Assembly (NCBI GenBank): GCA_033764335.1
Contig: JANRJC010000034.1
Coordinates: 20,899 to 84,898, forward strand
Direction of reading: 5' to 3'
Origin: Bacteroidia bacterium
GTDB taxonomy: Bacteria; Bacteroidota; Bacteroidia; J057
Length of the DNA stretch: 64,000 nucleotides
How positions within the stretch are numbered: the stretch's first letter is position 1; each line of letters opens with the position of its first letter. The notes beneath the pieces are model-generated. The model was not told where the DNA came from and did no database searches. It saw only the letters and a list, made by a program, of their open reading frames with translations. Shown here piece by piece: positions 938 to 50,052 of this stretch. A program made the translations under genes and the position numbers.

Positions 938-1102
938 AAATTAGGGTTTGATTCACAACAGACCATTGATTATTTGCCTCCAAAACTTTATGCCCTAAAA
1001 GTAGAAGGCTGTCCCAGCGGAAAGAAATAAACCTGACTGACTAGGGAAGAATGGTGTTTCAGGCGGGTTTTTGTATGAAAAAAATGAGTATTATGGCTCA
1101 CC

Positions 1103-8102: not shown

Positions 8103-8337
8103 AATTAGGCGAATACGATTGGACTTAATCACTTATCGAAAAATACACCCCAAAACTAGAGACAAGTTTTAGGGACAGCTACCATAAACAGGTATATCAG
8201 AATATCATCCGACTCGCCCGGAAAATACTTATCTTGCAACCCCACAATCCCCAAACAAAGGAGCTGGCTTCTGGGACAATTAGAGAAGGGGCGGCAGTAA
8301 CTAAAGCCGAGCCATTCAAAAAAAGTAAAATTAAAAG

Positions 8338-9006: not shown

Positions 9007-9045
9007 AAGCGTTTTTATTTATCTCAAACTTACAAAAAATCAAAG

Positions 9046-9706
9046 CTACTCCGGTCTCAAAAAGGCTTGATAGTTTTCGGGGTTTACTATTGTTAGCGAC
9101 GTTCCGGGATAGGCTTCGGTAAAACTGCCGGGAAGGCGGGACTGCTTTTTTGCATTCCACTTAAATTCGTAAGCGTGCAGCGCACCGTCATATTCCTCCA
9201 GATAATCAATTTCCTGCTGATTTACGGTTCTCCAAAAGTAGGTTTTTCCGTAAAACTTGTGAAACAAGTTGCGTTTATGGCGTTCGCTCACTAGAAAATT
9301 TTCCCAAAGGCCTCCTATGTCCGTGCGCAATTCCGGTGGCCGATAGTCTCCGATGACTGCATTCCGGATACCATTATCGTAGAAATAAATCTTCCGGCTT
9401 TTTTTCAGTTCTGTCAAGAATAATTTTTAAAGTCAAGCCGATATTTTTCACCCGCTGTGCTTCATCAATCATCAGCAGTTCCGCATTTCCCACCACATTT
9501 TGAAGGTTGGGCAACATCTGTATCTCCAACCTTGCCCTCACAGCGGCATCATCACAATCTAACCGTAGTACCCGAAAATTACTTCGCCGGGCGGCTTCCT
9601 CCAGAATGGTGGACTTTCCCGCCTGCCGTGGCCCTAATAATAGTACCGCTTTACCGGGCACAAGCTTTTCCTCAATCGTTTTCAATAAAACCCGATCTAT
9701 GTACAT
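9046..9706 (-). pseudogene. AAA_14/DUF4143 ATPase, internally deleted and frameshifted
   Basis: ORF 9374..9706 encodes the N-terminal P-loop part (LLLGPRQAGKST ... LLMIDEAQ). ORF 9046..9417, in another frame, encodes the DUF4143-like C-terminus (KIYFYDNGIRNA ... YFWRT..QEIDYL). Together they span only about 220 codons, which is shorter than intact family members as I recall them, and the two parts overlap out of frame. Confidence 0.7.
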
Positions 9707-12800: not shown

Positions 12801-12923
12801 GAGTTTTGCCACAAATTGTGTTTGGGCAATGGCCGTCATGCCGCTGAAGAAAAATATCAGCAGCAGAGCCGGGATTTGCTTTAAAACCCTGTTTTTGAGC
12901 AGGAGGAGTTGAGTTTTGTTCAT
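9870..12923 (-). CDS. Secreted protein with six tandem CHRD domains and a T9SS C-terminal sorting domain
   Basis: Signal peptide from the ATG at 12923 (MNKTQLLLLKNRVLKQIPALLLIFFFSGMTAIAQ). Six repeats of about 128 aa each contain G-SF..L......N..VAGGxH(F/I/L)H.G.AG.NGGI...L ... ADSNTFTL ... LY.NIHT....SGE(I/L)RGQ(L/V)LP, the CHRD signature. The C-terminal 80 aa or so end ...GSGVYFVKLEQTAVALPALKVLKK, typical of a Por/T9SS CTD. Confidence 0.85.
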   Translation of the reverse strand: MNKTQLLLLKNRVLKQIPALLLIFFFSGMTAIAQTQFVAKLSGNQSTFPILTTGKGEVTATLTGTELVVTGSFSGLVSDFNPNVAGGAHFHQGYAGRNGGIQIHLHTELDANLRGGTFPADSNTFTLTQAQIDALNSRQLYVNIHTAKYASGEIRGQLLPASDDYFSSRMFGSNSVPAVMSDGQGSLVLELTGNQLVVTGSFNNLTGDFNPAVAGGSHFHKGLAGENGGIQIELVPTPDANLKGGIFVADSNTFTLTQEQLDLLNGRGLYTNIHTTTVASGEIRGQVLPMPQIVFRTHLSGSNETTPLTVRGTGQTILEYKDSTLTVSGTFQNLGSPLNGAIAGGAHIHTNIAGRNGGISYHLHTELDTTGKFGRFEADSNSFAVSAAQLQNLMSRRMYANIHTAINPSGELRGQVLPQSQFVMNGFLSGINDVSPRISTGMGSLKAEILGNQMIVTGSFNNLQGDFNPAVAGGSHLHFGLAGSNGGIAIHLHPTLDANGKGGIFEADSNTITLSAGMRDTLKSRMLYANIHTTLYPPGEVRGQLLHEATSYFVAPLSGTSSTTPVKTNGTGAVNIEWTGTRLIATGSFNNLNTEFNHNVAGGAHIHVGYPGRNGSIQLPLEATVDTSGFSGQFLAVDNTLTARSGQIDSLFNRLFYVNIHTTANPSGEIRGTLLPFAATYFTAHAKADNELSVLSSPGHGAIKLSLTGSNLVVTGSFNALTLNYTASHLHIGANGTNGGVKIGLKPTVDPDQFGGVYQADSNRYVLDSAQIADIRSGNYYWNVHSAANPPGELRGQVLPETNFFPNDDAVITTPADGALIEIVGPEDSVFTADWSAASDPDNDLITYIWELALDSAFTQMITREKVRINQTFSTTFEVIDSLLALNGVNIGDTVTLYHRALSLDGNVSTPGMGASVQLIRSGLTGLDELIFDQFTLSFFPSPVQDVAHLVIESQIHTRATLRVMDMAGRTVSSREVVIGSGHNDLEIDFSQLGSGVYFVKLEQTAVALPALKVLKK

Positions 12924-13090
12924 AGGTAAGTAGTGTTTAAGTAAGTAGTAATCGCAAAATTTAATCATGCGAAACCCTGCCCTCGGTTTGACTTAGGCAG
13001 GGTGTTCGCTTCTGAATTGGAGAGCTACGATAAACATAACTCGCCTTCATCTGACAAAGAAAAGTTTGATGTTGTAACGGTAATTCCTTC

Positions 13091-13126
13091 GACTGAAACG
13101 GGAAAAAGAGTGACTGAAACGGGAAG
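13091..13126. promoter_or_regulatory. Direct repeat gactgaaacgggaa x2 with 21-bp periodicity in a divergent promoter region (candidate response-regulator operator)
   Basis: Identical 14-mers at 13091-13104 and 13112-13125. They lie between the CHRD gene (-) and the lipoprotein gene (+). Confidence 0.45.
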
Positions 13127-13210
13127 AATCATAGATCACAATTATTTTTTCTTGAACTTCCTTGAATAAAGGTTAATACAGCGTATCGAGATTATTTATA
13201 AATTGCCGAT

Positions 13211-13693
13211 ATGAAGTATCCAATGAAAAAAACAGCCTTATTTAAAATATGGGGGATTATTATCCCACTAATGGCAATATCCTGCAAAGAAGATCTGCCT
13301 CCCGTCATACAGGAACCGCCGGTGAGTCACAGCGATATGCTGATCTGTCATCATACTATCGTATGGGATTCCATTACGACTCGCAATGCTTTAATCGGAA
13401 AATGGCAATGGGAGTATATCACTTGTTATGGAAATCCGGAAGAGGCAAACTACGATGATTATAAAGACATGTTCGTGGAGTTTAAAGCCGATAATACATT
13501 GGAAGTAAAAATGAATGAGCAAATCACCCAGACCGTCACCTGGGATTTGAAGTCGGGAGAGGCCAATGTTTGGATAATGAAGGTCGAACCCCTCGTTCCG
13601 CAGATAGTGGGTCGGATTATACTTTGTGGCGACAGAGTAGAGTTTCAGGACAGCTATACCGACGGATGCGACAATTATTTTAAGCGGAAGTAG
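13211..13693 (+). CDS. Hypothetical lipoprotein
   Basis: Lipobox-like signal (MKKTALFKIWGIIIPLMAISC|KED). No recognisable catalytic motif. Confidence 0.6.
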   Translation: MKYPMKKTALFKIWGIIIPLMAISCKEDLPPVIQEPPVSHSDMLICHHTIVWDSITTRNALIGKWQWEYITCYGNPEEANYDDYKDMFVEFKADNTLEVKMNEQITQTVTWDLKSGEANVWIMKVEPLVPQIVGRIILCGDRVEFQDSYTDGCDNYFKRK

Positions 13694-13745
13694 GGTTAGG
13701 TAAGATGAGCTATAAAGTATAACTCTCCGGTTTTGTCCACGACCG

Positions 13746-14522
13746 CTATTCTCCCCCTCCCGTAAGCCAACGTTTGAATGTCGCGGCTCTTTCGGAGCTT
13801 ACAATGGTGTCGTCGTCCACCGGGGGGTTCAGATTGATTTTGACGCGAGACTTGGAGTAAGTGTACATCTGGTCAATGGCGCTGATGTTGATGATAAATT
13901 TACGGTTGATGCGGAAAAACTTTTTGGGATCCAACATAGCCTCCAACTGATCGAGATTATAATCCATCGGATAACTTTTTCCTCCGTGGGTCTTCATGAA
14001 AGTGACGCGTGAATCCACATAAAAATAAGCGGCTTCCGTAATCTCTATGGCTTTGATATGCTGGCCATACCGGATGACCATACGTTGCGGATATTCGGTT
14101 CGGTTTTTTTCCAGCGCCGCTGCCAGTTTGGTGTAATCGAGGTTTTCGAGGATTAGTTTATTTTTGTCGTAGATCTGCCGGAATTTTTCCAAGCTGCTAC
14201 TCAATTCTTCTTTTTTGACGGGTTTGAGCAAATAGTCCACACTATTCACTTTAAATGCTTTGACCGCATATTCATCATAAGCCGTGGTAAAAATGATGGG
14301 AACTTTTACTTCCACCTCCGAAAAAATTTCGAAAGAAGAGCCATCGGCAAGGTGAATATCAAGCAAAATCAAATCGGGATGCGGATGGCTGCGAAACCAT
14401 TCTACCGCAGCCTCCACGCTGTCAAGTACCGCTACAATCTCCGATTCCGGCGATATTTCAGCGATCATTTTTTCCAGCCGTTGAGAGGCGTTTAGTTCGT
14501 CTTCGATGATGAGGATTTTCAT
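13746..14522 (-). CDS. LytR/AlgR-family response regulator (REC + LytTR DNA-binding domain)
   Basis: REC domain (MKILIIEDE ... DLILLDIHLADGSSFEIF ... PIIFTTAYDEYAVKAF) and a C-terminal LytTR domain (FFRINRKFIINISAI). Its start overlaps the kinase stop (ATGA at 14519-14522). Confidence 0.9.
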   Translation of the reverse strand: MKILIIEDELNASQRLEKMIAEISPESEIVAVLDSVEAAVEWFRSHPHPDLILLDIHLADGSSFEIFSEVEVKVPIIFTTAYDEYAVKAFKVNSVDYLLKPVKKEELSSSLEKFRQIYDKNKLILENLDYTKLAAALEKNRTEYPQRMVIRYGQHIKAIEITEAAYFYVDSRVTFMKTHGGKSYPMDYNLDQLEAMLDPKKFFRINRKFIINISAIDQMYTYSKSRVKINLNPPVDDDTIVSSERAATFKRWLTGGGE

Positions 14523-37898: not shown

Positions 37899-38660
37899 TT
37901 AGGGTAGTTTACGCTGTAATTCTACGGCTTGGTTGTGGTAGTAATGTCCGGGGTCGCGTATGATCGAATCCAGAATTGTACGGGTCCTTTCCAGATCACT
38001 CGCTTTTAGCCGGGCAAGTGCCTTGTACCACATCGTCTGTTCGGGTACAAAAGAGGTTCGGTCAAGAACCTCCGCAGCTTCTGTCGGAGCGTGGAGTTCC
38101 AGCAAAGATATGGCGAAGTAAAAATCGGCTTCAGAGTATTTCGTTGTATCAATCAATAGCTGTTCTCTATATTTTTCAGTATATCGGAGGTAATCACCTT
38201 TGCGGTAAGCTGCATACATTTGATTGAGCTGTTCCCGGTCGCCTCCGGCTCCGAGGGTTTCAGGCGCGCGCGGAACCTCATAATAAGCCGAAAACAAAGC
38301 TTCTGGGGACAATCGTTTTGAGCGGAGTATGCTCACACTTATTCCGGCAACGGCAACGAGAATGAGTACAACTGCTGCAAGAGAAAACCATTTTCTTCGA
38401 GCAACCGATATTCGTTTTTTCTCTGAAGAAATCTCCTGGTAGATTTTGCGAAGATTTGTTTTTTGGTCTTCCTGCCCGGCCGTCCAGATTGCCCAATGAG
38501 TCAGTAGTTGTAAATGATATTGTTCATTAAAATCTTCATTTTCTCGGCAGACTCGCTCAAAATCCGCCGATTCCGTAGGAGTCATCCTACCCTGAATGTA
38601 TTTTTCTATCTGCCGGGTGGTTTCCGATTTTTCTTCTGATTCCATGTTTTCCGAAATCAT
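37899..38660 (-). CDS. Putative anti-sigma factor (single-pass membrane protein with TPR-like periplasmic domain)
   Basis: ATGA overlap with the upstream sigma factor gene. N-terminal cytoplasmic segment, one TM helix (WFSLAAVVLILVAVAGISVSIL), helical C-terminal domain. Confidence 0.55.
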   Translation of the reverse strand: MISENMESEEKSETTRQIEKYIQGRMTPTESADFERVCRENEDFNEQYHLQLLTHWAIWTAGQEDQKTNLRKIYQEISSEKKRISVARRKWFSLAAVVLILVAVAGISVSILRSKRLSPEALFSAYYEVPRAPETLGAGGDREQLNQMYAAYRKGDYLRYTEKYREQLLIDTTKYSEADFYFAISLLELHAPTEAAEVLDRTSFVPEQTMWYKALARLKASDLERTRTILDSIIRDPGHYYHNQAVELQRKLP

Positions 38661-39268
38661 ATCGTGCGATCTTTTCTTTTTTCCAGTAATTGTCGGAGTT
38701 TACTCATACAGCGATGTTTCTGACTTGCCAGACTGTTTGCATTTTTAAATCCCAACCTTTCCGTGAGTTCCTCCACTTCAAAACCATAATATTCAGACTC
38801 AACCAAAATCTGTCGGCATTTTCCACCGATTTTATCCAACAATAAGAGGATCTGATTCATGTCCTCACTTTCGATCAATCGCATAAGTGTGGTTTTTGCC
38901 TCTGTTTTCATATTAGGCAAAAGCTCTACCTGCTCCTTAATAGAAGAAGACGAATTTTTTCTGACACGATCAACACACCGGTTACAAAAAGATTTGTACA
39001 GGTATCCGGTCAGATTGCCTTCCGACTGAAATGCCTCATTATTAATCCGGTTACAAAGGCCAATTATCGCGTCTCCATACGCATCAACTGCCTCGTCTTC
39101 ACCAAGGTGATATTTTCGTTGTCCTTTCCTCACAAAATCCACGTGCCGATGGTAGAGATAGCTCGTAATACGCTGTCGCAACATGCCCCCCTGCTTGATT
39201 CCGGAAATGATTTCCGCATCAGAGTAATTTTGATCGGTTTCATTGCGCATAGTGAAGGCGGAAAACAA
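38657..39268 (-). CDS. Sigma-70 family (ECF-like) RNA polymerase sigma factor
   Basis: Region-2-like segment (EDEAVDAYGDAIIGLCNRI...GYLYKSFCNRCVDRVRK) and a region-4 HTH (CRQILVESEYYGFEVEELTERLGFKNANSLASQKHRCMSKLRQLL). Confidence 0.75.
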   Translation of the reverse strand: MFSAFTMRNETDQNYSDAEIISGIKQGGMLRQRITSYLYHRHVDFVRKGQRKYHLGEDEAVDAYGDAIIGLCNRINNEAFQSEGNLTGYLYKSFCNRCVDRVRKNSSSSIKEQVELLPNMKTEAKTTLMRLIESEDMNQILLLLDKIGGKCRQILVESEYYGFEVEELTERLGFKNANSLASQKHRCMSKLRQLLEKRKDRTI

Positions 39269-39456: not shown

Positions 39457-40272
39457 ATGAAAAACCTCTGCTTCACACATGTCGTTACGCTTTACGTCGT
39501 TTTTCTTTGTTTCTCGCTAAACCTTCAGGCACAGCCGGGCAATAGGCCAAGTTTTGCCGTGTGGGACTGCGATGGGCAAGGCATGATGGCACCTCCCCCG
39601 AGTTGGACGGCAGTCGGCCAAACCATGGCCCTGCTCGATTCTGTGAGTTATGCATTCCCCACGGGAACCACGGCTACGGATGTTAAATTTGTTTTCCAGT
39701 TTGAAGACTCCTCCGGAAAAATTCTTGATGTTCTCTACCCTGTCGTCGGATCAAAAGCTTATGAGTTGACTTACAACTTATCGAGCCTTCCTGCGGATGT
39801 CACACTAAGTACCTCTCCGGCCGGTATGGATTTGAGTTTCCGACTGAATACCCAGACTGTACAACCCACATCCGGAAGTTTTATTAAAGTCTATTACGAA
39901 GTCTGGACCCAAGATGCTTCTGTCCCGGGGTCCGTATTTAAATTGCTGGACGGGCAGACAAAAACTTCTTGGTATAAACACAGCCTTTCGTGTAACAAGC
40001 TGATGGGAAAAGCCCGAGTCGGGCTGTTTGGCCGAACCGAGATTCAGGCAAACCCCAATCCATTCAACGATTACCTCTATATCGTTGCTGAAACCGAAAC
40101 ATCGGTTGTAAAAATTATGGATTCACAAGGCAGAACGATCCGCGTGCTGACTGTTCCGGCAGGAGATCGCCCCGTTCGTTTTCCTACCGAAGACATTCCC
40201 GCAGGTTTGTATTTTCTGCAAAAACAGACCTCCTACGGTATTGAAACTCTTCCCATGGTAAAAACTCATTGA
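39457..40272 (+). CDS. Secreted protein with T9SS C-terminal sorting domain
   Basis: Signal peptide (MKNLCFTHVVTLYVVFLCFSLNLQAQ). C-terminal NPNPFNDYLYIVAE...VKIMDSQGRTIRVL...IPAGLYFLQKQTSYGIETLPMVK is typical of a Por secretion CTD. Confidence 0.75.
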   Translation: MKNLCFTHVVTLYVVFLCFSLNLQAQPGNRPSFAVWDCDGQGMMAPPPSWTAVGQTMALLDSVSYAFPTGTTATDVKFVFQFEDSSGKILDVLYPVVGSKAYELTYNLSSLPADVTLSTSPAGMDLSFRLNTQTVQPTSGSFIKVYYEVWTQDASVPGSVFKLLDGQTKTSWYKHSLSCNKLMGKARVGLFGRTEIQANPNPFNDYLYIVAETETSVVKIMDSQGRTIRVLTVPAGDRPVRFPTEDIPAGLYFLQKQTSYGIETLPMVKTH

Positions 40273-40279
40273 CAAAGGT

Positions 40280-40313
40280 ATTCCGGGCCAAATTTTGAAT
40301 TTTGGCCCGGAAT
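40280..40313 (+). terminator. Strong hairpin terminator after the T9SS-cargo gene
   Basis: 13-bp stem attccgggccaaa / tttggcccggaat (40280-40292 / 40301-40313) with an 8-nt loop and a T-rich tail (ctgatttttt). It overlaps the alternative-start codon called at 40302, which favours the ATG at 40344 for the next gene. Confidence 0.8.
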
Positions 40314-40343
40314 CCTGATTTTTTGAGAAATTGCCAGAAGCCT

Positions 40344-43217
40344 ATGTATTACTCCCTGTCAACAATTCGGTTTTACCCGCTTTTTTTGTTTTTATATATG
40401 GGAATTCCTGCTGCCATGGCTCAGTCCTCCCAGCAAGCAGAAGATTTGGCCCATGCACAAAAATGGATGGACGAAGCCTATATATATTTTCAGCAAAATC
40501 CCGATACAGCCATCTATTACCTTTTAAAGGCATTGCCGCTATTTGAAAAACATTCCGAATGGGAATCTTATAGCAGTTGTATGAATGGCCTTGTTGCCTG
40601 TTACATGGGGAAAGAGGATTATCTGTTGGCGGAAAATTACGGGCAGGAAACCTTGCTTTTTATCCGGAAACACCTCGGTAAAAAGGTGGAAGTTTACGCC
40701 GATGCCCTCAATAACATGGGTACTTTATACCGGCTTCAGGGCAACCTCAACCTGGCGTTGGAGAACTATGAAGAAGCGCTGTCCATTACCGAAAATCAGG
40801 ACTCGCTCGCGCCGCTTGCCATATCCCGCCTATATTACAATATGGGTATTATTTACCGAAGAAGAGGGGAACCGGATCGCGCAATCAAATTTCATGAAAA
40901 GGCTCTGGCCAATGGCAGTCAGGAGTTACCATCAAACGATCCCCGGTTGATTCAGATTCTGTTTGCGATGGCAAGAGTATATACCGATCAAAAAGCCTGG
41001 AATGAAGCTCTCCATACCAACCTCCGCTGCCTGCAACTACTCGAAAGCGGTAATCCGGAGAAAACCTTCCGGGAAAAAATTAATGTGCATCATCAGCTTG
41101 CTCAGATTTATCTGGATCAGCAAAAAACGGATAGTGCTGCTTTTTATATTGACCAGGCAGACCGTATTCACGCCCGGTTTGGCCATTACCGGGAACAAGT
41201 AGGAGAGAATATTCGAGGAGAAATTGACCGAATCAAACACAATTACCCTCGGGCACTCGTTCATTATCGAAAAGCCTTACAAATGAGGTTGGAAGAATGG
41301 GGAAGCCTGGGTACTAACCCTGATATCGCAAACTCTTTTAAAACAATCGGAAGCCTGTTTGAAGAAACCGGTAAATACGACTCTGCCATTGTCAACTACT
41401 ACCAGGCGTTGCAGTTTTTATGTAAACCCTACAAAGGCAAACTTCCCGCAGCGGCTGACATACTACACCCCTTTGATGTCATCCCCGTGCTGGAATCTAT
41501 TGCCCGGACTTCTATGGCCGGCAACCCAAAATCGTATGCAAAAACTGCTATACAAGCCTGTTTGCTGGCAGATACAACCATTGCTCGCTTACGCCATACT
41601 TATCAGGAAGATAATGCCAAACTACAACTGGGCCAGAAATTCCGCAACACCTATGAAACCGGGATAAAACTGTTTTTTCAGCAATTTCAGGAAACCCATA
41701 ATACCGCCTTTCTCGAAAAAGCATTCCTTTTTTCCGAAAAATCGCGATCTATGGCTCTGACCGACGCACTCCAATCCACAGGTGCCAAACTCAGCGTCGG
41801 TATTCCCGATAGCATTAGCAGAAAAGAACAACAAATTCTCATCAATAGAACTTTTTATCAGGAAAAACTATTTCAGGAAACCCTCAAAGGAGATCAGGCA
41901 GATACCGTAAAAATCAAAAAATGGAAAGAGGCACTTTTTAATGCAGAAGAAGCTTACCACCGCTTTATCCGCTATCTGGAATCTGCATTTCCGGCTTATT
42001 TTCAGCTAAAATATGACCCCTCTTCTTTATCTATTGCAGAGGTGCAGAAACAGTTTCCGGACAAAAATACTACACTGTTGGAGTATTTTTGGGGAGAAAA
42101 AAATATTTACATTTTCCTCCTTACCACTCAGGGAATTAGCGGTCATTCGTTGTCCAAAACAGATGATATGACCCAGGCCGTTGACGGACTTCGCTATTTT
42201 CTACACAAGCCTGATTATTCGCCGGAGGTTTTACAGAAATTTGTCCGAAACAGCAACATTTTATATAAAGGGCTGATTTCGCCCATATTAGGAAATCGCG
42301 ATTCCGGAAAATTATTGATCATTCCCGATGGACCGCTCTCCTATATTCCCTTCGAAATTCTGCTTAGTAAAGCTATTCAGAGCGATTCCCTACTGAAGTC
42401 TTCGGATTTTCGTTCTATGCCCTATCTTATCCGGAAGTTTGAAATCGGCTACGGACTTTCTGCGCGATTATTTTTCCATGAATTACCCCCGTCAACCAAA
42501 CCCAGGAAACTGTTGGGAGCGTTTTCACCCATTTACCCCGATTCATTGTTACTCACCTACAGCAGAGAAAACGCAATAGACATTACGGCCACCCAAAAAG
42601 GGACCCTATTTCTCGACCACGACGCTACTAAATCAACATTTAAAACACAGGCTGGGCATTTTCGCATACTACATCTTGCTATGCACGGATTTTCAAACGA
42701 AAAAGAACCGCTGCTTGCACATTTGCTTTTTTCAGGTGAACCCGATAGCAGCACCCAACTCTACGCATTTGAGTTATACAATATGCTCATTCCCGCAGAT
42801 TTGGTCGTCTTAGCAGCCTGTGAAACCGGAGATGGAAAATTAATACCGGGCGAAGGCATCATGAGTCTGGCAAGAGCTTTCCGATATGCAGGTAGTGCCG
42901 CCATGGTAAGTAGCCTGTGGAAAGCCGACGGGCGTTCAACATCCGATATTTTACAATCATTTTACCACGATTTATTTGAGGGGCATTCCAAAACTGCGGC
43001 TCTACGTCAGGCCAGGCTGCGTTTCCTTGATCAATGCACACCCGACCTGGTGCACCCCTATTATTGGGCCAATCATATCCTTATTGGCAACCCGGCGCCG
43101 CTAAATACAGAAATACCGGGCTGGGTTTATATCGGAATCTTAGCTTTGATAAGTACCGTTCTTATATTTATTTTTTTTCTCAGAAAAAAAATGAAAAATC
43201 CGATGATTAGAGCATAA
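40344..43217 (+). CDS. TPR-repeat + CHAT-domain (caspase-like protease) protein with N-terminal signal and C-terminal TM anchor
   Basis: Signal-like N-terminus (MYYSLSTIRFYPLFLFLYMGIPAAMAQ) and multiple TPR units (ALNNMGTLYRLQGNLNLALENYEEAL...). The C-terminal CHAT domain has a His (FRILHLAMHGF) and Cys (DLVVLAACETGDG) dyad and HPYYWA. A terminal TM helix follows (WVYIGILALISTVLIFIFFL). Confidence 0.85.
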   Translation: MYYSLSTIRFYPLFLFLYMGIPAAMAQSSQQAEDLAHAQKWMDEAYIYFQQNPDTAIYYLLKALPLFEKHSEWESYSSCMNGLVACYMGKEDYLLAENYGQETLLFIRKHLGKKVEVYADALNNMGTLYRLQGNLNLALENYEEALSITENQDSLAPLAISRLYYNMGIIYRRRGEPDRAIKFHEKALANGSQELPSNDPRLIQILFAMARVYTDQKAWNEALHTNLRCLQLLESGNPEKTFREKINVHHQLAQIYLDQQKTDSAAFYIDQADRIHARFGHYREQVGENIRGEIDRIKHNYPRALVHYRKALQMRLEEWGSLGTNPDIANSFKTIGSLFEETGKYDSAIVNYYQALQFLCKPYKGKLPAAADILHPFDVIPVLESIARTSMAGNPKSYAKTAIQACLLADTTIARLRHTYQEDNAKLQLGQKFRNTYETGIKLFFQQFQETHNTAFLEKAFLFSEKSRSMALTDALQSTGAKLSVGIPDSISRKEQQILINRTFYQEKLFQETLKGDQADTVKIKKWKEALFNAEEAYHRFIRYLESAFPAYFQLKYDPSSLSIAEVQKQFPDKNTTLLEYFWGEKNIYIFLLTTQGISGHSLSKTDDMTQAVDGLRYFLHKPDYSPEVLQKFVRNSNILYKGLISPILGNRDSGKLLIIPDGPLSYIPFEILLSKAIQSDSLLKSSDFRSMPYLIRKFEIGYGLSARLFFHELPPSTKPRKLLGAFSPIYPDSLLLTYSRENAIDITATQKGTLFLDHDATKSTFKTQAGHFRILHLAMHGFSNEKEPLLAHLLFSGEPDSSTQLYAFELYNMLIPADLVVLAACETGDGKLIPGEGIMSLARAFRYAGSAAMVSSLWKADGRSTSDILQSFYHDLFEGHSKTAALRQARLRFLDQCTPDLVHPYYWANHILIGNPAPLNTEIPGWVYIGILALISTVLIFIFFLRKKMKNPMIRA

Positions 43218-43314
43218 ACCTTACGTGTTGTAATAATTGAGGACGCAGGCGGCGGCATGTCGTTTTATCTGCGAAATCACAAAACTTATTGTAACACACT
43301 CAAATTAATGGTTT

Positions 43315-43506
43315 ATGAAAAACAAAAAAGATCAATTGCTTGAGCAGTTTGATGCTTTCAAACTCAACGAAGTGAAAACTTCCAGCCGTATCAAAGGTGG
43401 ACAGAAGCCCGGCGACACTGCGTCCTATGTTGAGCACACTTATGATGGGATTTCTTTCGATCATATATTCCATACGGATGATAAGTTTGCTGCGGTGGGA
43501 AAATAA
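43315..43506 (+). CDS. RiPP precursor peptide with double-glycine leader (candidate ATP-grasp-modified peptide)
   Basis: 63 aa: MKNKKDQLLEQFDAFKLNEVKTSSRIKGG | QKPGDTASYVEHTYDGISFDHIFHTDDKFAAVGK. The helical leader ends in I-K-G-G. The core is rich in Asp/Glu/Thr/Ser/Lys/His. It sits immediately upstream of the maturase and exporter genes. Confidence 0.75.
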   Translation: MKNKKDQLLEQFDAFKLNEVKTSSRIKGGQKPGDTASYVEHTYDGISFDHIFHTDDKFAAVGK

Positions 43507-43538
43507 TTACCCCAAAATGATTTATTAATTCATCAGGT

Positions 43539-43579
43539 AAACACGCCAGTAATCGCCCTGATGGCTGGCGTGTTTTTTT
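43539..43579 (+). terminator. Intrinsic terminator/attenuator between the precursor and maturase genes
   Basis: 11-bp stem aaacacgccag / ctggcgtgttt (43539-43549 / 43565-43575) followed by a T-run to 43579. A second complementary pair, catcagg (43531-37) / cctgatg (43557-63), interleaves with it. Confidence 0.8.
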
Positions 43580-43591
43580 ACCCTATACCCA

Positions 43592-44587
43592 ATGGTCATC
43601 ATCAGTTCCCAAAACAGCGACATTTCTACCGGCGAAGTCATGGACTGGCTGAGAAGTATGGGTACGCCCGTTTACCGTATCAATGGTGAAGTTTTTGAGG
43701 CGGCTTTAGGTGAATTTGAGATGAACATCCGCCCGGAAATGCCTGCTTCCCTGACCCTCGAAGTAGAAGGAAAACCGGTTGCACTCGAAGACATTACCGC
43801 ATTCTGGTTTCGGCGTTCGGCGATAGACAATACCGCCGCTTCCCGGCTGGAATCATACTCTGCTTCGCCAGACTTAAAAAAACAAATGCTGGGGCATTTG
43901 GGCATGGAGTCATCCGCTTTACAAACCGCTTTTTTTTCCTGGCTTTCCGACAAGAAAACACTGGGCAATTATCGCGAAAAAGGCATGAACAAACTCGCTG
44001 TCCTGCAAATGGCTCGGGCCACAGGACTGGAAGTCCCCGCGACACTTGTCACCAATTCTAAAGAAAAACTCAGAACTTTTGCCCGGCAATACCCCGAAAT
44101 GATTACCAAATGCCTATCGGAAGTCAGATCATTTCAGTTGGAAGGGAAAATGATGGGCATGTACACCAGCACCCTTGACATCGCCGAAGTTGAAGATTTG
44201 CCAGATTTTTTCGCACCGTCGTTGTTTCAGCAAAATATTCAAAAAGAGTTTGAACTCAGGGTCTTTTACCTCGCGGGGGAAGTATTCTCCATGGCTATTT
44301 TCTCTCAGCTTGATCCTGTAACTGCCGTGGATTTCCGGCAGTACAACCACGAAAAAAACAACCGGGTAGTGCCCTACGCACTCCCGGACGATATCACAGA
44401 CAAGATTCGCAAACTAATGAGTGCTCTTTCGCTCAATACTGGTTCTGTGGACATAATCAAATCCACTGACCGGAAATATATTTTCCTTGAAGTCAATCCG
44501 GTCGGGCAATTTGGGATGGTATCAAAGCCCTGTAACTATTTTCTCGAAAAAAAGATCGCGCAGTTTTTAATGAGTAATACCGCATGA
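43592..44587 (+). CDS. ATP-grasp peptide maturase (RimK/microviridin-ligase-like; 'grasp-with-spasm' type)
   Basis: MVIISSQNSDISTGEVMDWL N-terminus. ATP-grasp core: NKLAVLQMARATGLEVPATLVTN, ELRVFYLAGEVFSMAIFSQ...VDFRQY, and GSVDIIKSTDRKYIFLEVNPVGQF (Mg/ATP E-x-N). Confidence 0.85.
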   Translation: MVIISSQNSDISTGEVMDWLRSMGTPVYRINGEVFEAALGEFEMNIRPEMPASLTLEVEGKPVALEDITAFWFRRSAIDNTAASRLESYSASPDLKKQMLGHLGMESSALQTAFFSWLSDKKTLGNYREKGMNKLAVLQMARATGLEVPATLVTNSKEKLRTFARQYPEMITKCLSEVRSFQLEGKMMGMYTSTLDIAEVEDLPDFFAPSLFQQNIQKEFELRVFYLAGEVFSMAIFSQLDPVTAVDFRQYNHEKNNRVVPYALPDDITDKIRKLMSALSLNTGSVDIIKSTDRKYIFLEVNPVGQFGMVSKPCNYFLEKKIAQFLMSNTA

Positions 44588-44764
44588 AACAGCCCGAAAT
44601 ACTACAGAAAAAAATAACCGGTGAATTGCCGGTTTTGTACAATCTTCTCAAAGAAATGAAAAGCGATCCTTCTCTGGTTCGTTTTGTATCCAGTACTCGC
44701 CATCAGACCCGCCTTTACGGAACCGGATTTTTTTATAAACCCCTATCCCGATTTGTATCTCAAC

Positions 44765-45799
44765 ATGGAACTACCTGTAATGACCCGGACGGACAATAAG
44801 TGTTTTATGCTTTTTGCCTCCTGCATTCCTGTAAAAGGATTTGCCAAAAGCATCATTGCCGATATTCAACGGGAACAATACCTGCCTGTGCCCAACCTTC
44901 TGGCAGATATCCTGATTGAAAATCGAGGGGTTTCTATAGGTGAAATCAAAAACCGGTATCAGCATCAGTATGACGAAGGGTTGGATAGCTATTTCCAGGA
45001 ACTGGCCCGCTCCGAATGGGGATTTTTTACAGAAGACCCTGACTGTTTCCCGCCATTATCGCTGGAATGGGATCATCCATCGGCGATTACTCATGCCATT
45101 CTGGATATAGATCAATCAAGGCATTATGAGTTAACACCCGTCATAAAAGAATTGGATGAACAGGGATGTAAAGCGTTACAAATCAGAGGATTTGGAGAGA
45201 TTGATACGCTCTCTATGGAAGAATGGCTGGAGGCAGCCGAAGATACCGGAATTTTTTCGCTGGAAATGATTCTTCCCTTATCTGCTTTCCGCTCTGTAAG
45301 TGAAGCAGAAAAAATGATACTGCGATACTGTCGGATTGTTTCGCTGACACTGTATGGGGCTGAAAATGAAGGATTTGCAAACACTACACACCCCGCTTCC
45401 GAAGACATTATTTACCTTACCCGACAAGCCGTCACCCCATATTCAAAAGAGCTAAGCGGTCCCGAGTTTTTTACGACCAATATTCATGCCTTTACTGAAG
45501 CACAACATTTCAACCTCGGACTAAATCGGAAAATAACGGTAGATATAAGGGGCAATATTCGGCATTTTCCGGGTCATAGCAGGGTATTTGGGCATATATC
45601 GTCAGATACATTGACCGCAGTCGTGGGCACAAAAGAATTTCAGGCTGTCTGGCAAACCCCTGTTGATAAGATTGAAAACTGTAAAGAATGTGAGTTTCGA
45701 TATATGTGTGCGGACAATAGCGAGGTTGTGCAAAAAGGTGAAAAAATTTACAGACTCACTACTTGCACTTATAATCCCCGAACAGGCGAGTGGCAATAA
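44765..45799 (+). CDS. SPASM-domain-type peptide maturase homologue without a canonical radical-SAM CxxxCxxC motif
   Basis: Near the N-terminus: NKCFMLFASCIPVKGFAKSIIADIQRE. C-terminal Cys cluster C-x2-C-x5-C-x18-C (NCKECEFRYMC...TTC), resembling the last part of a SPASM/twitch domain. No CxxxCxxC anywhere in the ORF. The start is uncertain (ATG 44765 or 44780; the ORF track begins at TTG 44684). Confidence 0.7.
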   Translation: MELPVMTRTDNKCFMLFASCIPVKGFAKSIIADIQREQYLPVPNLLADILIENRGVSIGEIKNRYQHQYDEGLDSYFQELARSEWGFFTEDPDCFPPLSLEWDHPSAITHAILDIDQSRHYELTPVIKELDEQGCKALQIRGFGEIDTLSMEEWLEAAEDTGIFSLEMILPLSAFRSVSEAEKMILRYCRIVSLTLYGAENEGFANTTHPASEDIIYLTRQAVTPYSKELSGPEFFTTNIHAFTEAQHFNLGLNRKITVDIRGNIRHFPGHSRVFGHISSDTLTAVVGTKEFQAVWQTPVDKIENCKECEFRYMCADNSEVVQKGEKIYRLTTCTYNPRTGEWQ

Positions 45800-45813
45800 A
45801 AATAGTAAACCCT

Positions 45814-48000
45814 ATGGCTGGTTTCCCTTATTACAAACAGTTGGATGTGATGGATTGCGGTCCTACTTGTATAAGGATGATCGCCAGGCATTACGGGCGC
45901 CATTATACACTAAAAACCCTCAGGGAAAAAAGTACGGTGGATCGGGAAGGCATTTCGCTACAAGGGATCGGTGAAATCGCCGAAGCCGTTGGTTTTCGGT
46001 CTTTGGGGGTAAAACTGGACTTTGATACTCTTGCAAAAGAAGCCCCCCTTCCAGCCGTTGCACACTGGAACCAGAACCATTTCGTCGTAGTCTATAAGAT
46101 AAAAAATGACAAGATTTACATAGCCGACCCCGCCTACGGTATGCTGGTCTATTCGAAGCAGGATTTTATTAAAAGTTGGGCATCGGACCGTCAAAATGGT
46201 GCCGAAAGCGGCATCTTGCTGCTTTTGGAACCCGGCCCCGATTTTTTGGAAAGAGAAGAAGAAAAACAGGATAAAAGCAGCTTCCGGTTTCTGTTCCGAT
46301 ACCTATCCCCATTCCGCAAATACCTCACACAGTTGTTTTTTGGCCTGATTCTCGGGAGTTTGTTTCAGTTGATATTTCCCTTTCTGACTCAGGCCGTAGT
46401 AGATTTTGGCGTAGGTACGCGAAATGTGGGATTTGTTTATTTGATCCTTATCGCTCAACTGGTGCTTTTTGCGAGCCAGATGGCGATGCAGTTTATTCAG
46501 GCATGGATACTTATTCACCTTAGTACACGCATAAATATTTCCATTCTTTCAGATTTCCTGATTAAGCTGATGAAACTGCCAGTGGGCTTTTTCGACAGTA
46601 AAAAAACTGGCGACCTGATGCAGCGAATTGGCGATCACCGGAGGATTGAACTATTTCTTACCGATGCGGTACTCAATAGCCTATTCTCACTATTTACCCT
46701 TGTGATTCTGGGGTTCGTTTTGGCTATTTACAGCCTGCCCGTATTTTTCATTTTCCTTACCGGAAGTACCTTATATGTAGGCTGGATTCTGCTTTTCCTG
46801 AAAAAAAGAGCACAACTGGATCACAAGAGTTTTGCCCAAATGGCAGCAGAACAGAGCAATATCATCCAGTTGATCACCGGAATGCAGGAAATCAAACTTA
46901 ACAATATCGAAAGATCAAGGCGGTGGGAATGGGAACGCATTCAGGCAAAGTTGTTTCGTATTAATCTCAAAAAACTGAGTCTCACCCAATACCAGCAAGG
47001 CGGTGCGCGGTTTTTTAACCAGATACAGAATATACTCATTATTTTCATTTCTGCCCAGGCTGTGATTGAAGGCGATATGACCATGGGCATGATGATGGCC
47101 ATCACCTATATCTCAGGGCAGTTGAACACCCCTATCGGACAGTTGATATCCTTTCTGCAACAGGCACAGGATGCCAAAATAAGCCTGGAACGTCTGGGGG
47201 AAATACATAACAGCCAGGACGAAGATGAAGAGGGAGGAATAGCAAATGATTTTTTCCCCTCTGACCGAAGTATCAGCATCCGCAACCTCGGTTTTCGTTA
47301 CGGGGGGACAGGAAGTGCAGAGGTATTGAGCAACCTCAGCCTGCATATTCCCAAAGGAAAAATTACGGCGATTGTCGGAGCGAGTGGCAGCGGAAAAACC
47401 ACCCTGATCAAACTCCTGCTTAAATTTTACCCGCCCCAGGAAGGACAGATTCAGATCGGTAATATTCGATTGGAAGATATACGCAGCCACAAATGGCGAA
47501 ACAGTTGTGGCGTAGTCATGCAAGACGGATTTATCTTTTCCGACAGCATCGCCAATAATATTGCCATGGAGGAAACCATAGATAAGTATCGCCTCCAGCA
47601 GGCTGTGGCTATTGCCAATATACGCCCGTTCATTGACGAATTACCACTGGGGTTTAATACCAAAATCGGGCAAGAAGGACTGGGACTGAGTGGGGGGCAG
47701 AAACAACGTATTCTGATCGCTCGTGCGGTTTACAAAAACCCCGACTATCTATTTTTTGACGAAGCCACCAGTGCCCTTGACGCCACCAACGAAAGACAGA
47801 TCATGGAAAATCTGGAAAATTTTTTTATAGGCAAAACCGTAATCATCGTTGCGCATCGCTTGAGCACTGTAAAAAATGCAGACCAGATCATCGTTTTGGA
47901 TAGGGGAAAAGTAGTAGAAACCGGGCATCATTCGACCTTGGTGGACCATCGTGGGCAATATTATTCACTGATCAAAAACCAGTTGGAACTGGGCAACTAA
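45814..48000 (+). CDS. Peptidase-C39-domain ABC transporter (double-glycine leader-cleaving bacteriocin/RiPP exporter)
   Basis: N-terminal C39 domain (QLDVMDCGPTCIRMIARHYG catalytic Cys; VAHWNQNHFVVVYKI His). Six-TM ABC membrane domain. NBD with Walker A GASGSGKTT, signature LSGGQKQR, Walker B LFFDEATSALD. Confidence 0.9.
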   Translation: MAGFPYYKQLDVMDCGPTCIRMIARHYGRHYTLKTLREKSTVDREGISLQGIGEIAEAVGFRSLGVKLDFDTLAKEAPLPAVAHWNQNHFVVVYKIKNDKIYIADPAYGMLVYSKQDFIKSWASDRQNGAESGILLLLEPGPDFLEREEEKQDKSSFRFLFRYLSPFRKYLTQLFFGLILGSLFQLIFPFLTQAVVDFGVGTRNVGFVYLILIAQLVLFASQMAMQFIQAWILIHLSTRINISILSDFLIKLMKLPVGFFDSKKTGDLMQRIGDHRRIELFLTDAVLNSLFSLFTLVILGFVLAIYSLPVFFIFLTGSTLYVGWILLFLKKRAQLDHKSFAQMAAEQSNIIQLITGMQEIKLNNIERSRRWEWERIQAKLFRINLKKLSLTQYQQGGARFFNQIQNILIIFISAQAVIEGDMTMGMMMAITYISGQLNTPIGQLISFLQQAQDAKISLERLGEIHNSQDEDEEGGIANDFFPSDRSISIRNLGFRYGGTGSAEVLSNLSLHIPKGKITAIVGASGSGKTTLIKLLLKFYPPQEGQIQIGNIRLEDIRSHKWRNSCGVVMQDGFIFSDSIANNIAMEETIDKYRLQQAVAIANIRPFIDELPLGFNTKIGQEGLGLSGGQKQRILIARAVYKNPDYLFFDEATSALDATNERQIMENLENFFIGKTVIIVAHRLSTVKNADQIIVLDRGKVVETGHHSTLVDHRGQYYSLIKNQLELGN

Positions 48001-49322
48001 TGACGGAGAACCTTTACCATAACGGACAGAAGCTTGAAGCACCTCAAATTGAGCTTTATAGTGAGGAAGTACAAGAAATAATGGGGACTATCCCTCCCTG
48101 GATAATTCGGCGAGGAATGGTAGTGATGTTAGTCCTGGTATTCGGATTGCTGGCGCTTTCAGCATTGGTTCATTATCCCGATATGATTTCTGCGAGGATC
48201 ACACTGACCACGACGTCTCCCCCCATAAGAATTTTCGCCCGTGCAAACGGGAAAATCACCCAATTGTTGGTTGAAAATCAGGCTATTGTGTCAGAAGGAA
48301 CTTATTTGGCGGTCATTGAAAACGCTGCGAATACCGCCTCCGTTTTTGCATTGGAAAAACTTTTAAACAAAGGCCTCGCTGATCATACAAAAATCACCGA
48401 GTGGCCTGCTTTTGACGATCTGGGAGAATTGCAAGGTGCGTATTCAGCTTTTATCCATGCGCGGGAAAATGGTCATTTTTATGCACAGAGCAGCACCTTT
48501 CGCGGCGCACAGCAGGTCTTATTGTCGGAGCAGGCAGAAGAATTACGGGCGATGAACCAAAACCTCGAAGAGCAACGCACTTTACTTCAGCGGGAAACTG
48601 CCATTGCAAAGGCGCAATTTAGAGCCTCGGAAACCCTATACGCCGAAGGCGCCATATCTAAAGTAGAACTCGAAACCAAAGAAGCTACCCTGCTTCAGAA
48701 AGAATTGGCGGCGAAACAGTTACATTCCTCTATTTTCCAAAACAATATACAGATCAGTGAATACCAAAAAAAAATACAGGAGATCCGGCAGGAAAATCTA
48801 CATTCCGGTTTTTCGTTTGATCTGAACATCAGCGATGCCTTTCAGCAGTTGAGTGCGGGGATTGAAAACTGGAAACAAAACTACCTGATTGTCGCCCCGC
48901 AGAAAGGACGTGTGGAATACCTCGATATCTGGGCCGAAAATCAGTATGTAAAAACAGGTGCAGAAGTAATCAGCATTGTACCCGATTCAGAGGAAGTTTT
49001 GGGCAAAGCAATTGTTTCTTCGCTCAACGCAGGTAAAATACAAACCGGACAAAAAGTAAATATTAAACTTGACAACTACGATTATCGGGAGTTTGGGATG
49101 CTTTCCGGTGAAATCAGGAACATTTCAAGCCTTGCAAAAGATGGACAATATATCCTCGATATTCAACTGAGTAACGGGCTTCTAACGACGTATAAAAAAA
49201 CCATCCGGTTTCAGTCAGAAATGTACGGCCAAGCGGAGGTCATTACCCAGGACATCAGTCTGCTGGACAGGATATTTTTCCAGTTTCGGGAGCTGCTGAC
49301 GCCAACAGTGGTTAATGGTTAA
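48000..49322 (+). CDS. HlyD-family membrane-fusion/secretion adaptor protein
   Basis: N-terminal TM helix (VVMLVLVFGLLALSALV), beta/lipoyl-like segments flanking a long coiled coil (LEEQRTLLQRETAIAKAQFRASETLY...), and a C-terminal beta-barrel domain. Its start overlaps the ABC stop (TAATG). Confidence 0.8.
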   Translation: MTENLYHNGQKLEAPQIELYSEEVQEIMGTIPPWIIRRGMVVMLVLVFGLLALSALVHYPDMISARITLTTTSPPIRIFARANGKITQLLVENQAIVSEGTYLAVIENAANTASVFALEKLLNKGLADHTKITEWPAFDDLGELQGAYSAFIHARENGHFYAQSSTFRGAQQVLLSEQAEELRAMNQNLEEQRTLLQRETAIAKAQFRASETLYAEGAISKVELETKEATLLQKELAAKQLHSSIFQNNIQISEYQKKIQEIRQENLHSGFSFDLNISDAFQQLSAGIENWKQNYLIVAPQKGRVEYLDIWAENQYVKTGAEVISIVPDSEEVLGKAIVSSLNAGKIQTGQKVNIKLDNYDYREFGMLSGEIRNISSLAKDGQYILDIQLSNGLLTTYKKTIRFQSEMYGQAEVITQDISLLDRIFFQFRELLTPTVVNG

Positions 49323-49418: not shown

Positions 49419-49751
49419 CTAGTCATCCAAAAATCCACTTACGGCCTGCTTTAGTTCAGATATTTTATAAGTGACGTAGTTCCACAAGTTTGCAGGACGA
49501 GCAGAATCATACTGATGTACCAGTGTATTCCGCCTGTTAATTGCCTGATCCTGACCAGGAAAATAAAACTGGAGTTTCAGTAATTGGTAGGCAGCTTCCC
49601 CTATTATTGCGAGTTCCCGCTCCACAGAAAGAATGGTTTTCAGATCATTACAAAATTCTTCTTCCGTATTGATCCCATCCAGATGAACCTTTTCGATGTC
49701 TTCGATACACTGAAGAATATCAAACAGATATTTTTTCTCTTTCCTGGTCAT
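49419..49751 (-). CDS. hepT: HepT-like (DUF86) toxin of a nucleotidyltransferase-type TA pair
   Basis: 110 aa with the R-x4-H-x-Y motif (RRNTLVHQYD). It overlaps the upstream antitoxin gene by 32 nt. Confidence 0.75.
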   Translation of the reverse strand: MTRKEKKYLFDILQCIEDIEKVHLDGINTEEEFCNDLKTILSVERELAIIGEAAYQLLKLQFYFPGQDQAINRRNTLVHQYDSARPANLWNYVTYKISELKQAVSGFLDD

Positions 49752-50052
49752 AGATTAATACCTTGGTTTCATCAACTTCAGCCTTGAAGTAGGGATTTCT
49801 AAGCCCTGGATACCACACCAAATCGACAGAGTGCCCCAGCAATTTCTCCGCCTCATCCTGAAAAGCAAAAAAATAGTCTATCGAATCTGCACCAGACAGA
49901 TTGGCGTGATTTAATTCATACAAAAAATCAATATCCGAATCGGGTCCAAATCTGGTAGTTAATGCAGAGCCAAACAGCCATAACTTGCTGAAGTGATACT
50001 TCAGGCAAAGATTTCTGATTGCGTCAATATATGGCTTTAATTCTGCGTTCAT
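49720..50052 (-). CDS. mntA: MntA-like minimal nucleotidyltransferase antitoxin
   Basis: G-S-x(n)-D-x-D nucleotidyltransferase motif (LWLFGSALTTRFGPDSDIDFLYE). 110 aa. Confidence 0.75.
   Translation of the reverse strand: MNAELKPYIDAIRNLCLKYHFSKLWLFGSALTTRFGPDSDIDFLYELNHANLSGADSIDYFFAFQDEAEKLLGHSVDLVWYPGLRNPYFKAEVDETKVLIYDQEREKISV

Follow-up and report, generated by a model that had tools for sequence, protein, structure and literature searches.

What does a short open reading frame (ORF) directly ahead of an ATP-grasp ligase gene encode, and which of its residues would the neighbouring enzymes modify? We addressed this question for the 63-aa ORF at positions 43315-43506 (+) of a 64,000-nt stretch of Bacteroidia bacterium contig JANRJC010000034.1, referred to here as the window. 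The initial annotation described the ORF as the precursor of a ribosomally made peptide that is modified after translation (RiPP), with a Gly-Gly (GG)-type leader, accompanied by an ATP-grasp ligase and a C39 exporter. That assignment holds: the ligase reaches 300.9 bits for TIGR04192 (cut-off 230) with weaker MvdC/MvdD matches, a C39-ABC transporter and an HlyD adaptor are encoded downstream, and Asp and Thr abound in the core. The ORF is a conserved gene lying directly upstream of gwsG and gwsS together with a C39 exporter, and its family tracks one ligase clade. It is very likely the precursor of a grasp-with-spasm-type graspetide in a new family, with rings made by the ligase and export through the C39 transporter.

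The cluster runs in the order precursor, hairpin, ligase, LPL, SPASM partner, C39-ABC and HlyD, all on the + strand:

43315-43506, +, precursor gene: 63-aa ORF, translated as MKNKKDQLLEQFDAFKLNEVKTSSRIKGG followed by QKPGDTASYVEHTYDGISFDHIFHTDDKFAAVGK
43315-43401, +, leader region: 29 codons, MKNKKDQLLEQFDAFKLNEVKTSSRIKGG, with the N-terminal motif L-x-x-Q-F-[DN]-[AS]-F and the C-terminal predicted cleavage site I-x-G-G
43402-43503, +, predicted core: 34 codons, QKPGDTASYVEHTYDGISFDHIFHTDDKFAAVGK; stop codon at 43504-43506
43540-43579, +, hairpin (AACACGCCAG…CTGGCGTGTT) followed by a T-run, between the precursor and ligase genes
43592-44587, +, GwsG, ATP-grasp peptide maturase (graspetide synthetase): TIGR04192; Pfam MvdD pre-ATP-grasp and RimK
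44584-44799, +, 71-aa 'LPL-family'-like protein (…ELPVLYNLLKEM…GFFYKPLS…), starting within the last bases of gwsG and ending within the first part of gwsS
44765-45799, +, GwsS, SPASM-domain partner: TIGR04193; RRE (RiPP recognition element)-like N-terminal domain, cluster-less barrel resembling radical S-adenosylmethionine (SAM) enzymes, four-Cys SPASM domain
45790-48000, +, peptidase-containing ABC transporter (C39, transmembrane and nucleotide-binding domains): Pfam Peptidase_C39 8e-37, ABC_membrane, ABC_tran
48000-49322, +, HlyD-family periplasmic adaptor: Pfam HlyD_3, TIGR01843

The precursor gene and its family

The precursor ORF is the only one of its kind across the window and ends 85 nt upstream of the ligase gene. 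The ligase and partner genes carry the NCBI names gwsG and gwsS, and GwsS scores 218.6 bits against TIGR04193 (cut-off 175), its start at 44765 having been adopted from the 100%-identical 344-aa NCBI protein P0007. The N-terminal sequence of the transporter contains the catalytic Gln, Cys, His and Asp-Pro expected of a C39 domain. Between the two maturation genes, the 71-aa protein carries the motifs ELPVLY and FYKPLS (family form LP[VLP][LMC]Y and FYKP[LI][ST]), and the same motifs recur at the same position in six homologous loci (L048, L049, L001, L019, L046 and L051). It has no match among Pfam or NCBIfam models; its motifs and position agree with the published account of the LPL family, a comparison made by description and not by profile, in which the LPL gene lies directly upstream of the SPASM gene (PMC8939145). 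The LPL family has been proposed as a PqqD-like chaperone.

These components identify the window cluster as the known grasp-with-spasm system. It corresponds to Branch 5 of Makarova et al. 2022, a Bacteroidetes-specific branch of 190 loci with hyperdiverse GG-leader precursors, conservation of a T/S residue together with a D/E residue, and an LPL protein (PMC8939145), and to Group 14 of the RODEO graspetide survey, one of the larger graspetide groups, in which TIGR04193 is counted 1,657 times across 1,643 predicted biosynthetic gene clusters (100.9%), making the SPASM partner near-universal (PMC13097080). Among the loci that we compared, ligase and SPASM partner occur together in 17 of the 18 genome loci, and small GG-leader ORFs lie upstream in most homologous loci. 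The window itself comes from a Bacteroidota host, with the C39-ABC/HlyD exporter in the cluster and a type IX secretion system (T9SS) sorting domain encoded next door. A search for a characterised product of Group 14 or of grasp-with-spasm clusters found none in the searchable literature.

The ORF encodes a genuine, strongly constrained gene, since dN/dS against four relatives is only 0.03-0.07 with saturated dS (Nei-Gojobori, codons 1-58) and stop codons break up the overlapping antisense frame, a 57-aa ORF, in L001, L019, L047 and L046. Retranslation and recounting reproduced the annotated peptide and its core composition, namely 34 residues with 6 Asp/Glu, 5 Ser/Thr, 3 Lys, 3 His and 2 Tyr, and no Cys, Trp or Met. 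In L049, public annotation chose the antisense 57-aa ORF (890-1063 (-), equivalent to window 43300-43473 (-)) over the precursor, and a P. gingivalis preprint describes gws precursors as frequently left uncalled; the family is therefore under-counted in protein databases. There is a lesson here for annotation, in that the precursor falls outside all existing models and at least one gene caller picked the antisense ORF instead.

Relatives of the peptide are few. A word-index protein search with the precursor returned three close relatives, and two more (P0004, E 4.5e-34; P0005, E 2.9e-9) came from an exhaustive profile search covering 1.84 billion representative proteins, while P0006 from the same search was rejected as a spurious repeat protein. 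Two further loci, L048 and L049, were found via GwsS, bringing the family to eight loci, all of them from metagenome-assembled genomes or metagenomes; a metagenome scan with the ligase gave no closer relatives carrying the same precursor. The peptide gene lies directly upstream of gwsG in all eight. It is better conserved than the ligase encoded beside it (peptide versus ligase identities of 93 vs 70%, 81 vs 64%, 73 vs 60% and 49 vs 40%), and the ligases of the window, L048, L001 and L046 form one clade in a neighbour-joining tree (no bootstrap), which the precursor family appears to track.

No match at E ≤ 10 was obtained between the window precursor and TIGR04194, TIGR04149, TIGR04139, PF14406 or NF047798. 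Of seven sister precursors run against the models, three match TIGR04149, TIGR04194, TIGR04139 or PF14406 weakly and below threshold, one passes NF047798, and two give no match. The core motif of the family, P-(G)-D-T…[YW]VEHTY, likewise has no precursor-model match, and neither this motif nor the strings FHTDD, VEHTY, RIKGG, CHIDG and CHTDG were found in the accessible portions of the supplements of PMC8939145 and PMC13097080. Judged by sequence, the peptide thus founds a rare, previously unmodelled precursor family. One further family will not surprise a specialist, the group being already known for hyperdiverse precursors. As an entry point to Group 14 it is nonetheless a clean one, with a single precursor per locus, a short Cys-free core, a strong motif and a partner with one putative Fe-S site.

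Leader and core of the precursor family

The leader ends in I26-K27-G28-G29, with Ile at -4 and Gly-Gly at -2/-1 as originally annotated, and both I-x-G-G and the motif L-x-x-Q-F-[DN]-[AS]-F are invariant in all eight family members. Double-glycine leaders are marked by GG (or GA/GS) at -2/-1 and by hydrophobicity at -4, features that the window shares with class II bacteriocin and peptidase-containing transporter leaders (LSxxELxxIxGG; TIGR01847, PF10439), along with an operon-encoded C39-ABC transporter bearing the Gln/Cys/His/Asp residues. Unlike those leaders, it has no hydrophobic residue at -7 or -12 and no acidic residue near -8, carrying Ser at -7, Thr at -8, Asn at -12 and Glu-Val at -11/-10 instead of -8/-7, and it matches neither TIGR01847 nor PF10439 at E ≤ 10. 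The rest of the family follows suit, with Ser/Thr at -7 and Asn/Lys/Gln at -12; besides -4, its hydrophobic positions are -10, -13, -15, -18 and -21/-22. Across 37 other leaders taken from homologous loci, the share with a hydrophobic residue is 81% at -4, 76% at -7, 59% at -12, 59% at -17 and 78% at -20. A GG-type site is present in all 37 of these precursor candidates, which were chosen for having one, so this figure is no test of conservation.

The leader element had been described as sitting three residues further out than in classical leaders. This is accurate for the Glu-Val pair but not as a rigid shift, because the upstream hydrophobic residues (-13, -15, -18 and -21) fit the common register best at +1 and not at +3, and the leader, at 29 aa, is as long as that of the canonical relative L051. 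A rigid three-residue insertion was accordingly rejected. In L002 and L003, an L-x-x-Q-F-x-x-[FY] element common to both sits at a different distance from GG, which points to the L-x-x-Q-F element being a recognition element separate from the cleavage site.

Downstream of the leader, M-K-N-x-K-D, P-(G)-D-T, [YW]-V-E-H-T-Y, one downstream Asp and F29 are invariant in all eight members. The seven close members additionally keep I-S-F-D and [FT]-H-[TS]-D-D, and with them His12 and His24, which lie 12 residues apart. Not conserved are S8, D15, H21, K28 (replaced by Pro) and every residue after F29, where a hypervariable tail can be up to 11 residues longer or shorter between members and closes with G-K, G-G, N-G or R-G.

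The duplicated H-T-x-D module that featured in the initial annotation is present in the window, but the repeat is statistically weak and does not extend across the family. Some repeated a-b-x-c pattern arises in 6.7% of core shuffles and some repeated 3-residue pattern in 17%; HT.D occurs twice in 0.02%, yet this pattern was selected post hoc. Position 15 is Asp in three members, Asn in L047, L048, L020 and L049 (the L020 and L049 peptides being near-identical) and Ser in L046. Module 2 reads T-H-S-D-D in L047 and is absent from L046, the most distant member. Because D15 varies and module 2 is altered or lost, the H-T-x-D pair appears to be a trait of some members and not a modification unit. 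The alignment of homologous small ORFs, which had been put forward as a check, thus returned a conserved GG site and an unconserved HTxD pair, and in place of two ring modules the family-wide motif is P-(G)-D-T…[YW]-V-E-H-T-Y.

These substitutions also mean that D15 cannot be a required acceptor. Asp-Gly and Asn-Gly are classic type I' β-turn pairs, and D/N exchange before Gly suits such a turn better than an acceptor role, so D15 is probably a turn residue. The residues that are kept include those expected of a graspetide core, in which Ser/Thr/Lys donors and Asp/Glu acceptors are conserved: the seven close members all keep donors T6, T13, S18 and T/S25 and acceptors D5, E11, D20, D26 and D27, and L046 retains D-T, E11, T13 and one downstream Asp. 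No Lys donor is conserved across the family. Donors and acceptors are arranged mirror-symmetrically around D15-G16, with D5, T6, E11 and T13 on one side and S18, D20, T25 and D26 on the other; four same-class mirrored pairs have P = 0.012 in 50,000 shuffles, the statistic being post hoc. This symmetry about the turn suggests a hairpin core that may be closed by diagonal esters, for example E11-S18, T13-D20, T6-D26 and D5-T25.

In composition the core is unexceptional. Asp and Thr are over-represented in cores of the group (Asp 10.3 vs 5.2%, Thr 10.2 vs 5.3%), as they are in that of the window. The absence of Cys, first regarded as a special trait, appears ordinary within the group, since other cores, encoded at homologous loci, also lack Cys in 11 of 35 to 14 of 37 cases (about 31-38%). 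A separate precursor family, in L005, L011, L012 and L030, carries one to two copies of T-G-S-T-Y-S-[IV]-C-H-[ITV]-D-G-[KVT]-[TVD]-D-G-D and follows a ligase clade of its own; the H-[ITV]-D-G-K segment within it resembles F-H-T-D-D-K of the window, with Cys replacing Phe.

When compared with characterised relatives, the window agrees with grasp-with-spasm precursors in gene order, GG motif, Asp/Thr-rich core, a ligase-clade-specific family and a Bacteroidota host. Where those leaders follow MKKL…KF.L…EM..I.GG, the window leader is instead polar at -7/-12 and carries L-x-x-Q-F-[DN]-[AS]-F; two further departures from the norm are a precursor that matches no model and, in the window clade, a GwsS without four of the eight SPASM Cys. 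In microviridin and chryseoviridin (Group 1; MdnA/MdnB/MdnC and CdnA/CdnB/CdnC), as predicted for the window, an MvdC/MvdD-like ATP-grasp ligase links Thr/Ser to Asp/Glu side chains of a ribosomal precursor, and the window ligase has sub-cut-off matches to TIGR04185 (1e-51) and TIGR04184 (1e-47). The microviridin leader motif PFFARFL binds the ligase, and the microviridin and window leaders each hold a short conserved aromatic/hydrophobic segment. Unlike microviridin, however, the window has neither a TxKxPSDx(E/D)(D/E) core nor a Pro-hydrophobic leader motif, and it encodes one ligase rather than two, together with a SPASM partner and an LPL protein.

GwsS and the maturation scheme

According to the initial annotation, a SPASM radical-SAM enzyme acts on the peptide and is merely deprived of Cys. 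The sequence of GwsS does not bear this out. The CxxxCxxC motif of the SAM cluster is absent from all 32 locus-encoded and all 48 database homologues, and the window protein has no match to PF04055 (Radical_SAM) or to a SPASM model in Pfam, with matches up to E ≤ 10 included. Eight SPASM Cys are kept in 27 of the 48 database homologues, while the other 21 lack some or all of positions 228, 252, 268 and 318. The window clade lacks all four, the window GwsS having K, G, F and N there; it keeps C306, C309, C315 and C334, which are retained in all 21 homologues with Cys loss, and so falls short of the seven or eight Cys that mark a SPASM domain with two auxiliary clusters. By analogy with anSME, we assign the lost four, as ligands, to auxiliary cluster I (Aux I) and the four that remain to cluster II. 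An N-terminal Cys, C20, within F-x-L-F-A-x-C-I-P-V-K-G, is near-invariant across the homologues. GwsS thus appears to lack the canonical radical-SAM machinery, and radical chemistry by this protein is doubtful. Because its homologues have no CxxxCxxC, the argument for a second modification loses its premise and has to be rebuilt around an RRE-bearing, pseudo-radical-SAM partner. The literature that we consulted terms GwsS a 'radical SAM' or 'SPASM' maturase, and the absence of CxxxCxxC is not mentioned there.

A link between loss of SPASM Cys and Cys-free cores was considered and rejected: L050, L051 and L031 lose four Cys yet have Cys-containing cores, and several loci with all eight SPASM Cys carry Cys-free cores.

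Sequence search against PDB chains gave nothing useful for GwsS, and only fold comparison was informative. The AlphaFold2 model (pLDDT 93.3) is predicted to contain an RRE, a partial TIM barrel and a SPASM domain, and its top Foldseek matches in the PDB are SuiB, CteB and anSME (E 1.7e-5 to 2e-3). SuiB and CteB are RRE-bearing radical-SAM/SPASM maturases with the same three parts, and anSME shares the SPASM domain. Unlike CteB and SuiB, GwsS has no CxxxCxxC and hence no SAM-cluster site, is about 100 residues shorter, and in the window clade keeps four SPASM Cys. The first 95 residues modelled alone (pLDDT 91.8) match TbiB1, the CteB RRE (24% identity), lasso B1, ThcOx, SuiB, PbtF and MccB, with TM scores to RRE domains of 0.53-0.61 and root-mean-square deviations of 2.5-3.3 Å.

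The reading that we favour, a graspetide precursor matured by the ligase and exported, can be set out as a scheme. Since a conserved hairpin and T-run follow the precursor gene, the precursor would be transcribed in excess of the enzymes. Its leader would be bound through L-x-x-Q-F-[DN]-[AS]-F by the ligase, by the RRE-like GwsS domain or by both, with possible involvement of the LPL protein. The ATP-grasp ligase would then make side-chain ester rings from donors T6, T13, S18 and T/S25 and acceptors D5, E11, D20 and D26, on a core that is probably a hairpin with its turn at D/N15-G16. GwsS would most likely present the peptide or act as a partner protein, and any extra chemistry that it performed would be SAM-independent. 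Finally, the C39 domain of the ABC transporter would cut after G28-G29, and the product would be exported with HlyD.

Several points weigh against this scheme. Beyond a conserved gene in a cluster, modification, rings and cleavage are what we infer. Cleavage after G29 appears less certain than usual, because the -7/-12 hydrophobic residues of most C39 substrates, present in 59-76% of sister leaders, are absent here. In L046, no C39 transporter lies within the 16.2-kb stretch available (about 8 kb either side of the precursor). The mirror symmetry of the core is post hoc and fails in L046, where the T6-E11 and T13-D20 spacings of the close family also shift by one residue. For GwsS, the RRE assignment rests on Foldseek E-values of 0.013-1.5, yet the top matches are uniformly RREs with probabilities of 0.9-1.0, and the lost Fe-S cluster is assigned by analogy with anSME rather than by measurement.

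How, then, do other accounts of the peptide compare? It could be an unmodified class II bacteriocin-like peptide that shares only the exporter, or a small protein unrelated to the ligase; the GG site, the C39-ABC/HlyD exporter and the lack of any precursor-model match would all accord with this. We consider it very improbable given that the gene precedes gwsG directly at every family locus, including L046 with no exporter in its 16.2-kb stretch, that the family tracks a ligase clade, that its core is Asp/Thr-enriched like others in the group, and that the sequence reads as lacking the hydrophobic or amphipathic segment typical of pore-forming bacteriocins. The account in the initial annotation invoked two Thr-Asp ester modules, E-H-T-Y-D-G and F-H-T-D-D-K, followed by radical-SAM modification of His, Tyr, Phe or aliphatic carbons. 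Both modules do occur in the window, module 2 resembles the [C]-H-[ITV]-D-G-K repeated in L005, L011, L012 and L030 cores, the two His are kept in the seven close members, and the whole-protein fold of GwsS is nearest to peptide-modifying radical-SAM/SPASM enzymes. Against it stand the Asn and Ser found at position 15, the missing second module of L046, a repeat that shuffled cores reproduce too readily to compel, and the lack of CxxxCxxC in 80 GwsS homologues and of any Radical_SAM or SPASM Pfam match in the window protein. Thr-Asp at i/i+2 or i/i+3 would, moreover, close rings much smaller than any that we know of in characterised graspetides. Two-module esterification with radical-SAM tailoring is therefore improbable.

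For GwsS itself, one tentative reading, possible rather than probable, is that of a pseudo-enzyme derived from a CteB/SuiB-like maturase, which kept the RRE and a partial Fe-S scaffold and serves as an obligatory peptide-presenting partner or as a SAM-independent catalyst on [YW]VEHTY. If GwsS is indeed a pseudo-enzyme, the Cys-free family with its four-Cys-loss partner offers a minimal natural system in which to define the role of the partner. A rather unlikely variant holds that GwsS remains catalytic without a SAM cluster, using its remaining Fe-S cluster and Cys20 for a SAM-independent (for example oxidative) change at [YW]-V-E-H-T-Y, so that the product would bear esters plus a cross-link or an oxidation. 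The near-universal presence of TIGR04193 in Group 14, the near-invariance of four SPASM Cys and one N-terminal Cys in the family, the barrel predicted at high confidence and the invariance of [YW]VEHTY even in a 49%-identical member, which is more than ester chemistry alone seems to need, speak for catalysis. We know of no precedent, however, for catalysis by a SPASM protein without a SAM cluster; the fact that 21 of 48 homologues have lost four Cys in concert implies that cluster content is partly dispensable, and the cores of the group share only D/T enrichment, which fits binding better than residue-specific catalysis.

Non-coding elements and neighbouring genes

The hairpin between the precursor and ligase genes was overlooked by a simple terminator scan, probably because its outer stem encloses more than the 3-8-base loop that the scan allows, and was recovered by folding, with 43505-43595 giving -24.6 kcal/mol (z = -3.7). 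Its stem (ACACGCC.G…C.GGCGTGT) is near-identical in the window, L048, L001, L019 and L047 despite saturated synonymous sites in the coding sequence, which implies selection on the hairpin RNA or terminator itself. L046 has a comparable hairpin with a T-run. The element is probably a partial intrinsic terminator or a stabiliser that sets the ratio of precursor to enzyme transcripts.

Upstream of the precursor, at 43217-43314 (+), two conserved blocks common to L048 and L001, CGTGTTGTAATAA and TTATTGTAACACACTCAAATTAATGGTTTA, form an imperfect inverted repeat (GTGTTGTAATAA / TTATTGTAACAC). The corresponding upstream region of L019 and L047 contains a common TTCGTGTT element within a palindrome. 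These blocks and palindromes may represent a promoter or operator.

Two genes on the upstream side accompany the cluster:

40302-43217, +, membrane-anchored TPR-CHAT (caspase-like) protein: Pfam CHAT 7e-46 plus TPRs
39457-40272, +, 271-aa secreted protein whose C-terminal domain is a T9SS sorting domain: Por_Secre_tail

The TPR-CHAT gene occupies the same position in L001, L019, L047 and L048 and lies near the cluster in the distant loci L017, L018 and L051, and the 271-aa T9SS-sorted protein is syntenic in L019, L047 and L048. Together, the T9SS-sorted and TPR-CHAT genes were recorded in synteny with the cluster at each of the five close loci. Every graspetide of characterised function is a protease inhibitor (PMC8939145), so a link to the neighbouring CHAT protease is worth considering.

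Further upstream, at 37899-39268 (-), a weak Sigma70_r2 (extracytoplasmic function-like) protein and a 253-aa partner are divergent from the T9SS/CHAT genes. Two genes matching this pair in size and position occur in L019, L047 and L048, with a weak Sigma70_r2 match on the first in L019 and L047 and no Pfam match recorded for the L048 pair; the window pair may be a regulator of the region. On the other side, directly after hlyD, a toxin-antitoxin pair made up of a HepT-like RNase and a nucleotidyltransferase (MNT) lies at 49419-50052 (-), and we take it as the downstream edge of the cluster. In L019, a 2x-coverage ENA contig, gwsG and hlyD are each present as two overlapping pieces in different frames (8307-9291 and 12788-14081), probably reflecting sequencing frameshifts rather than pseudogenes.

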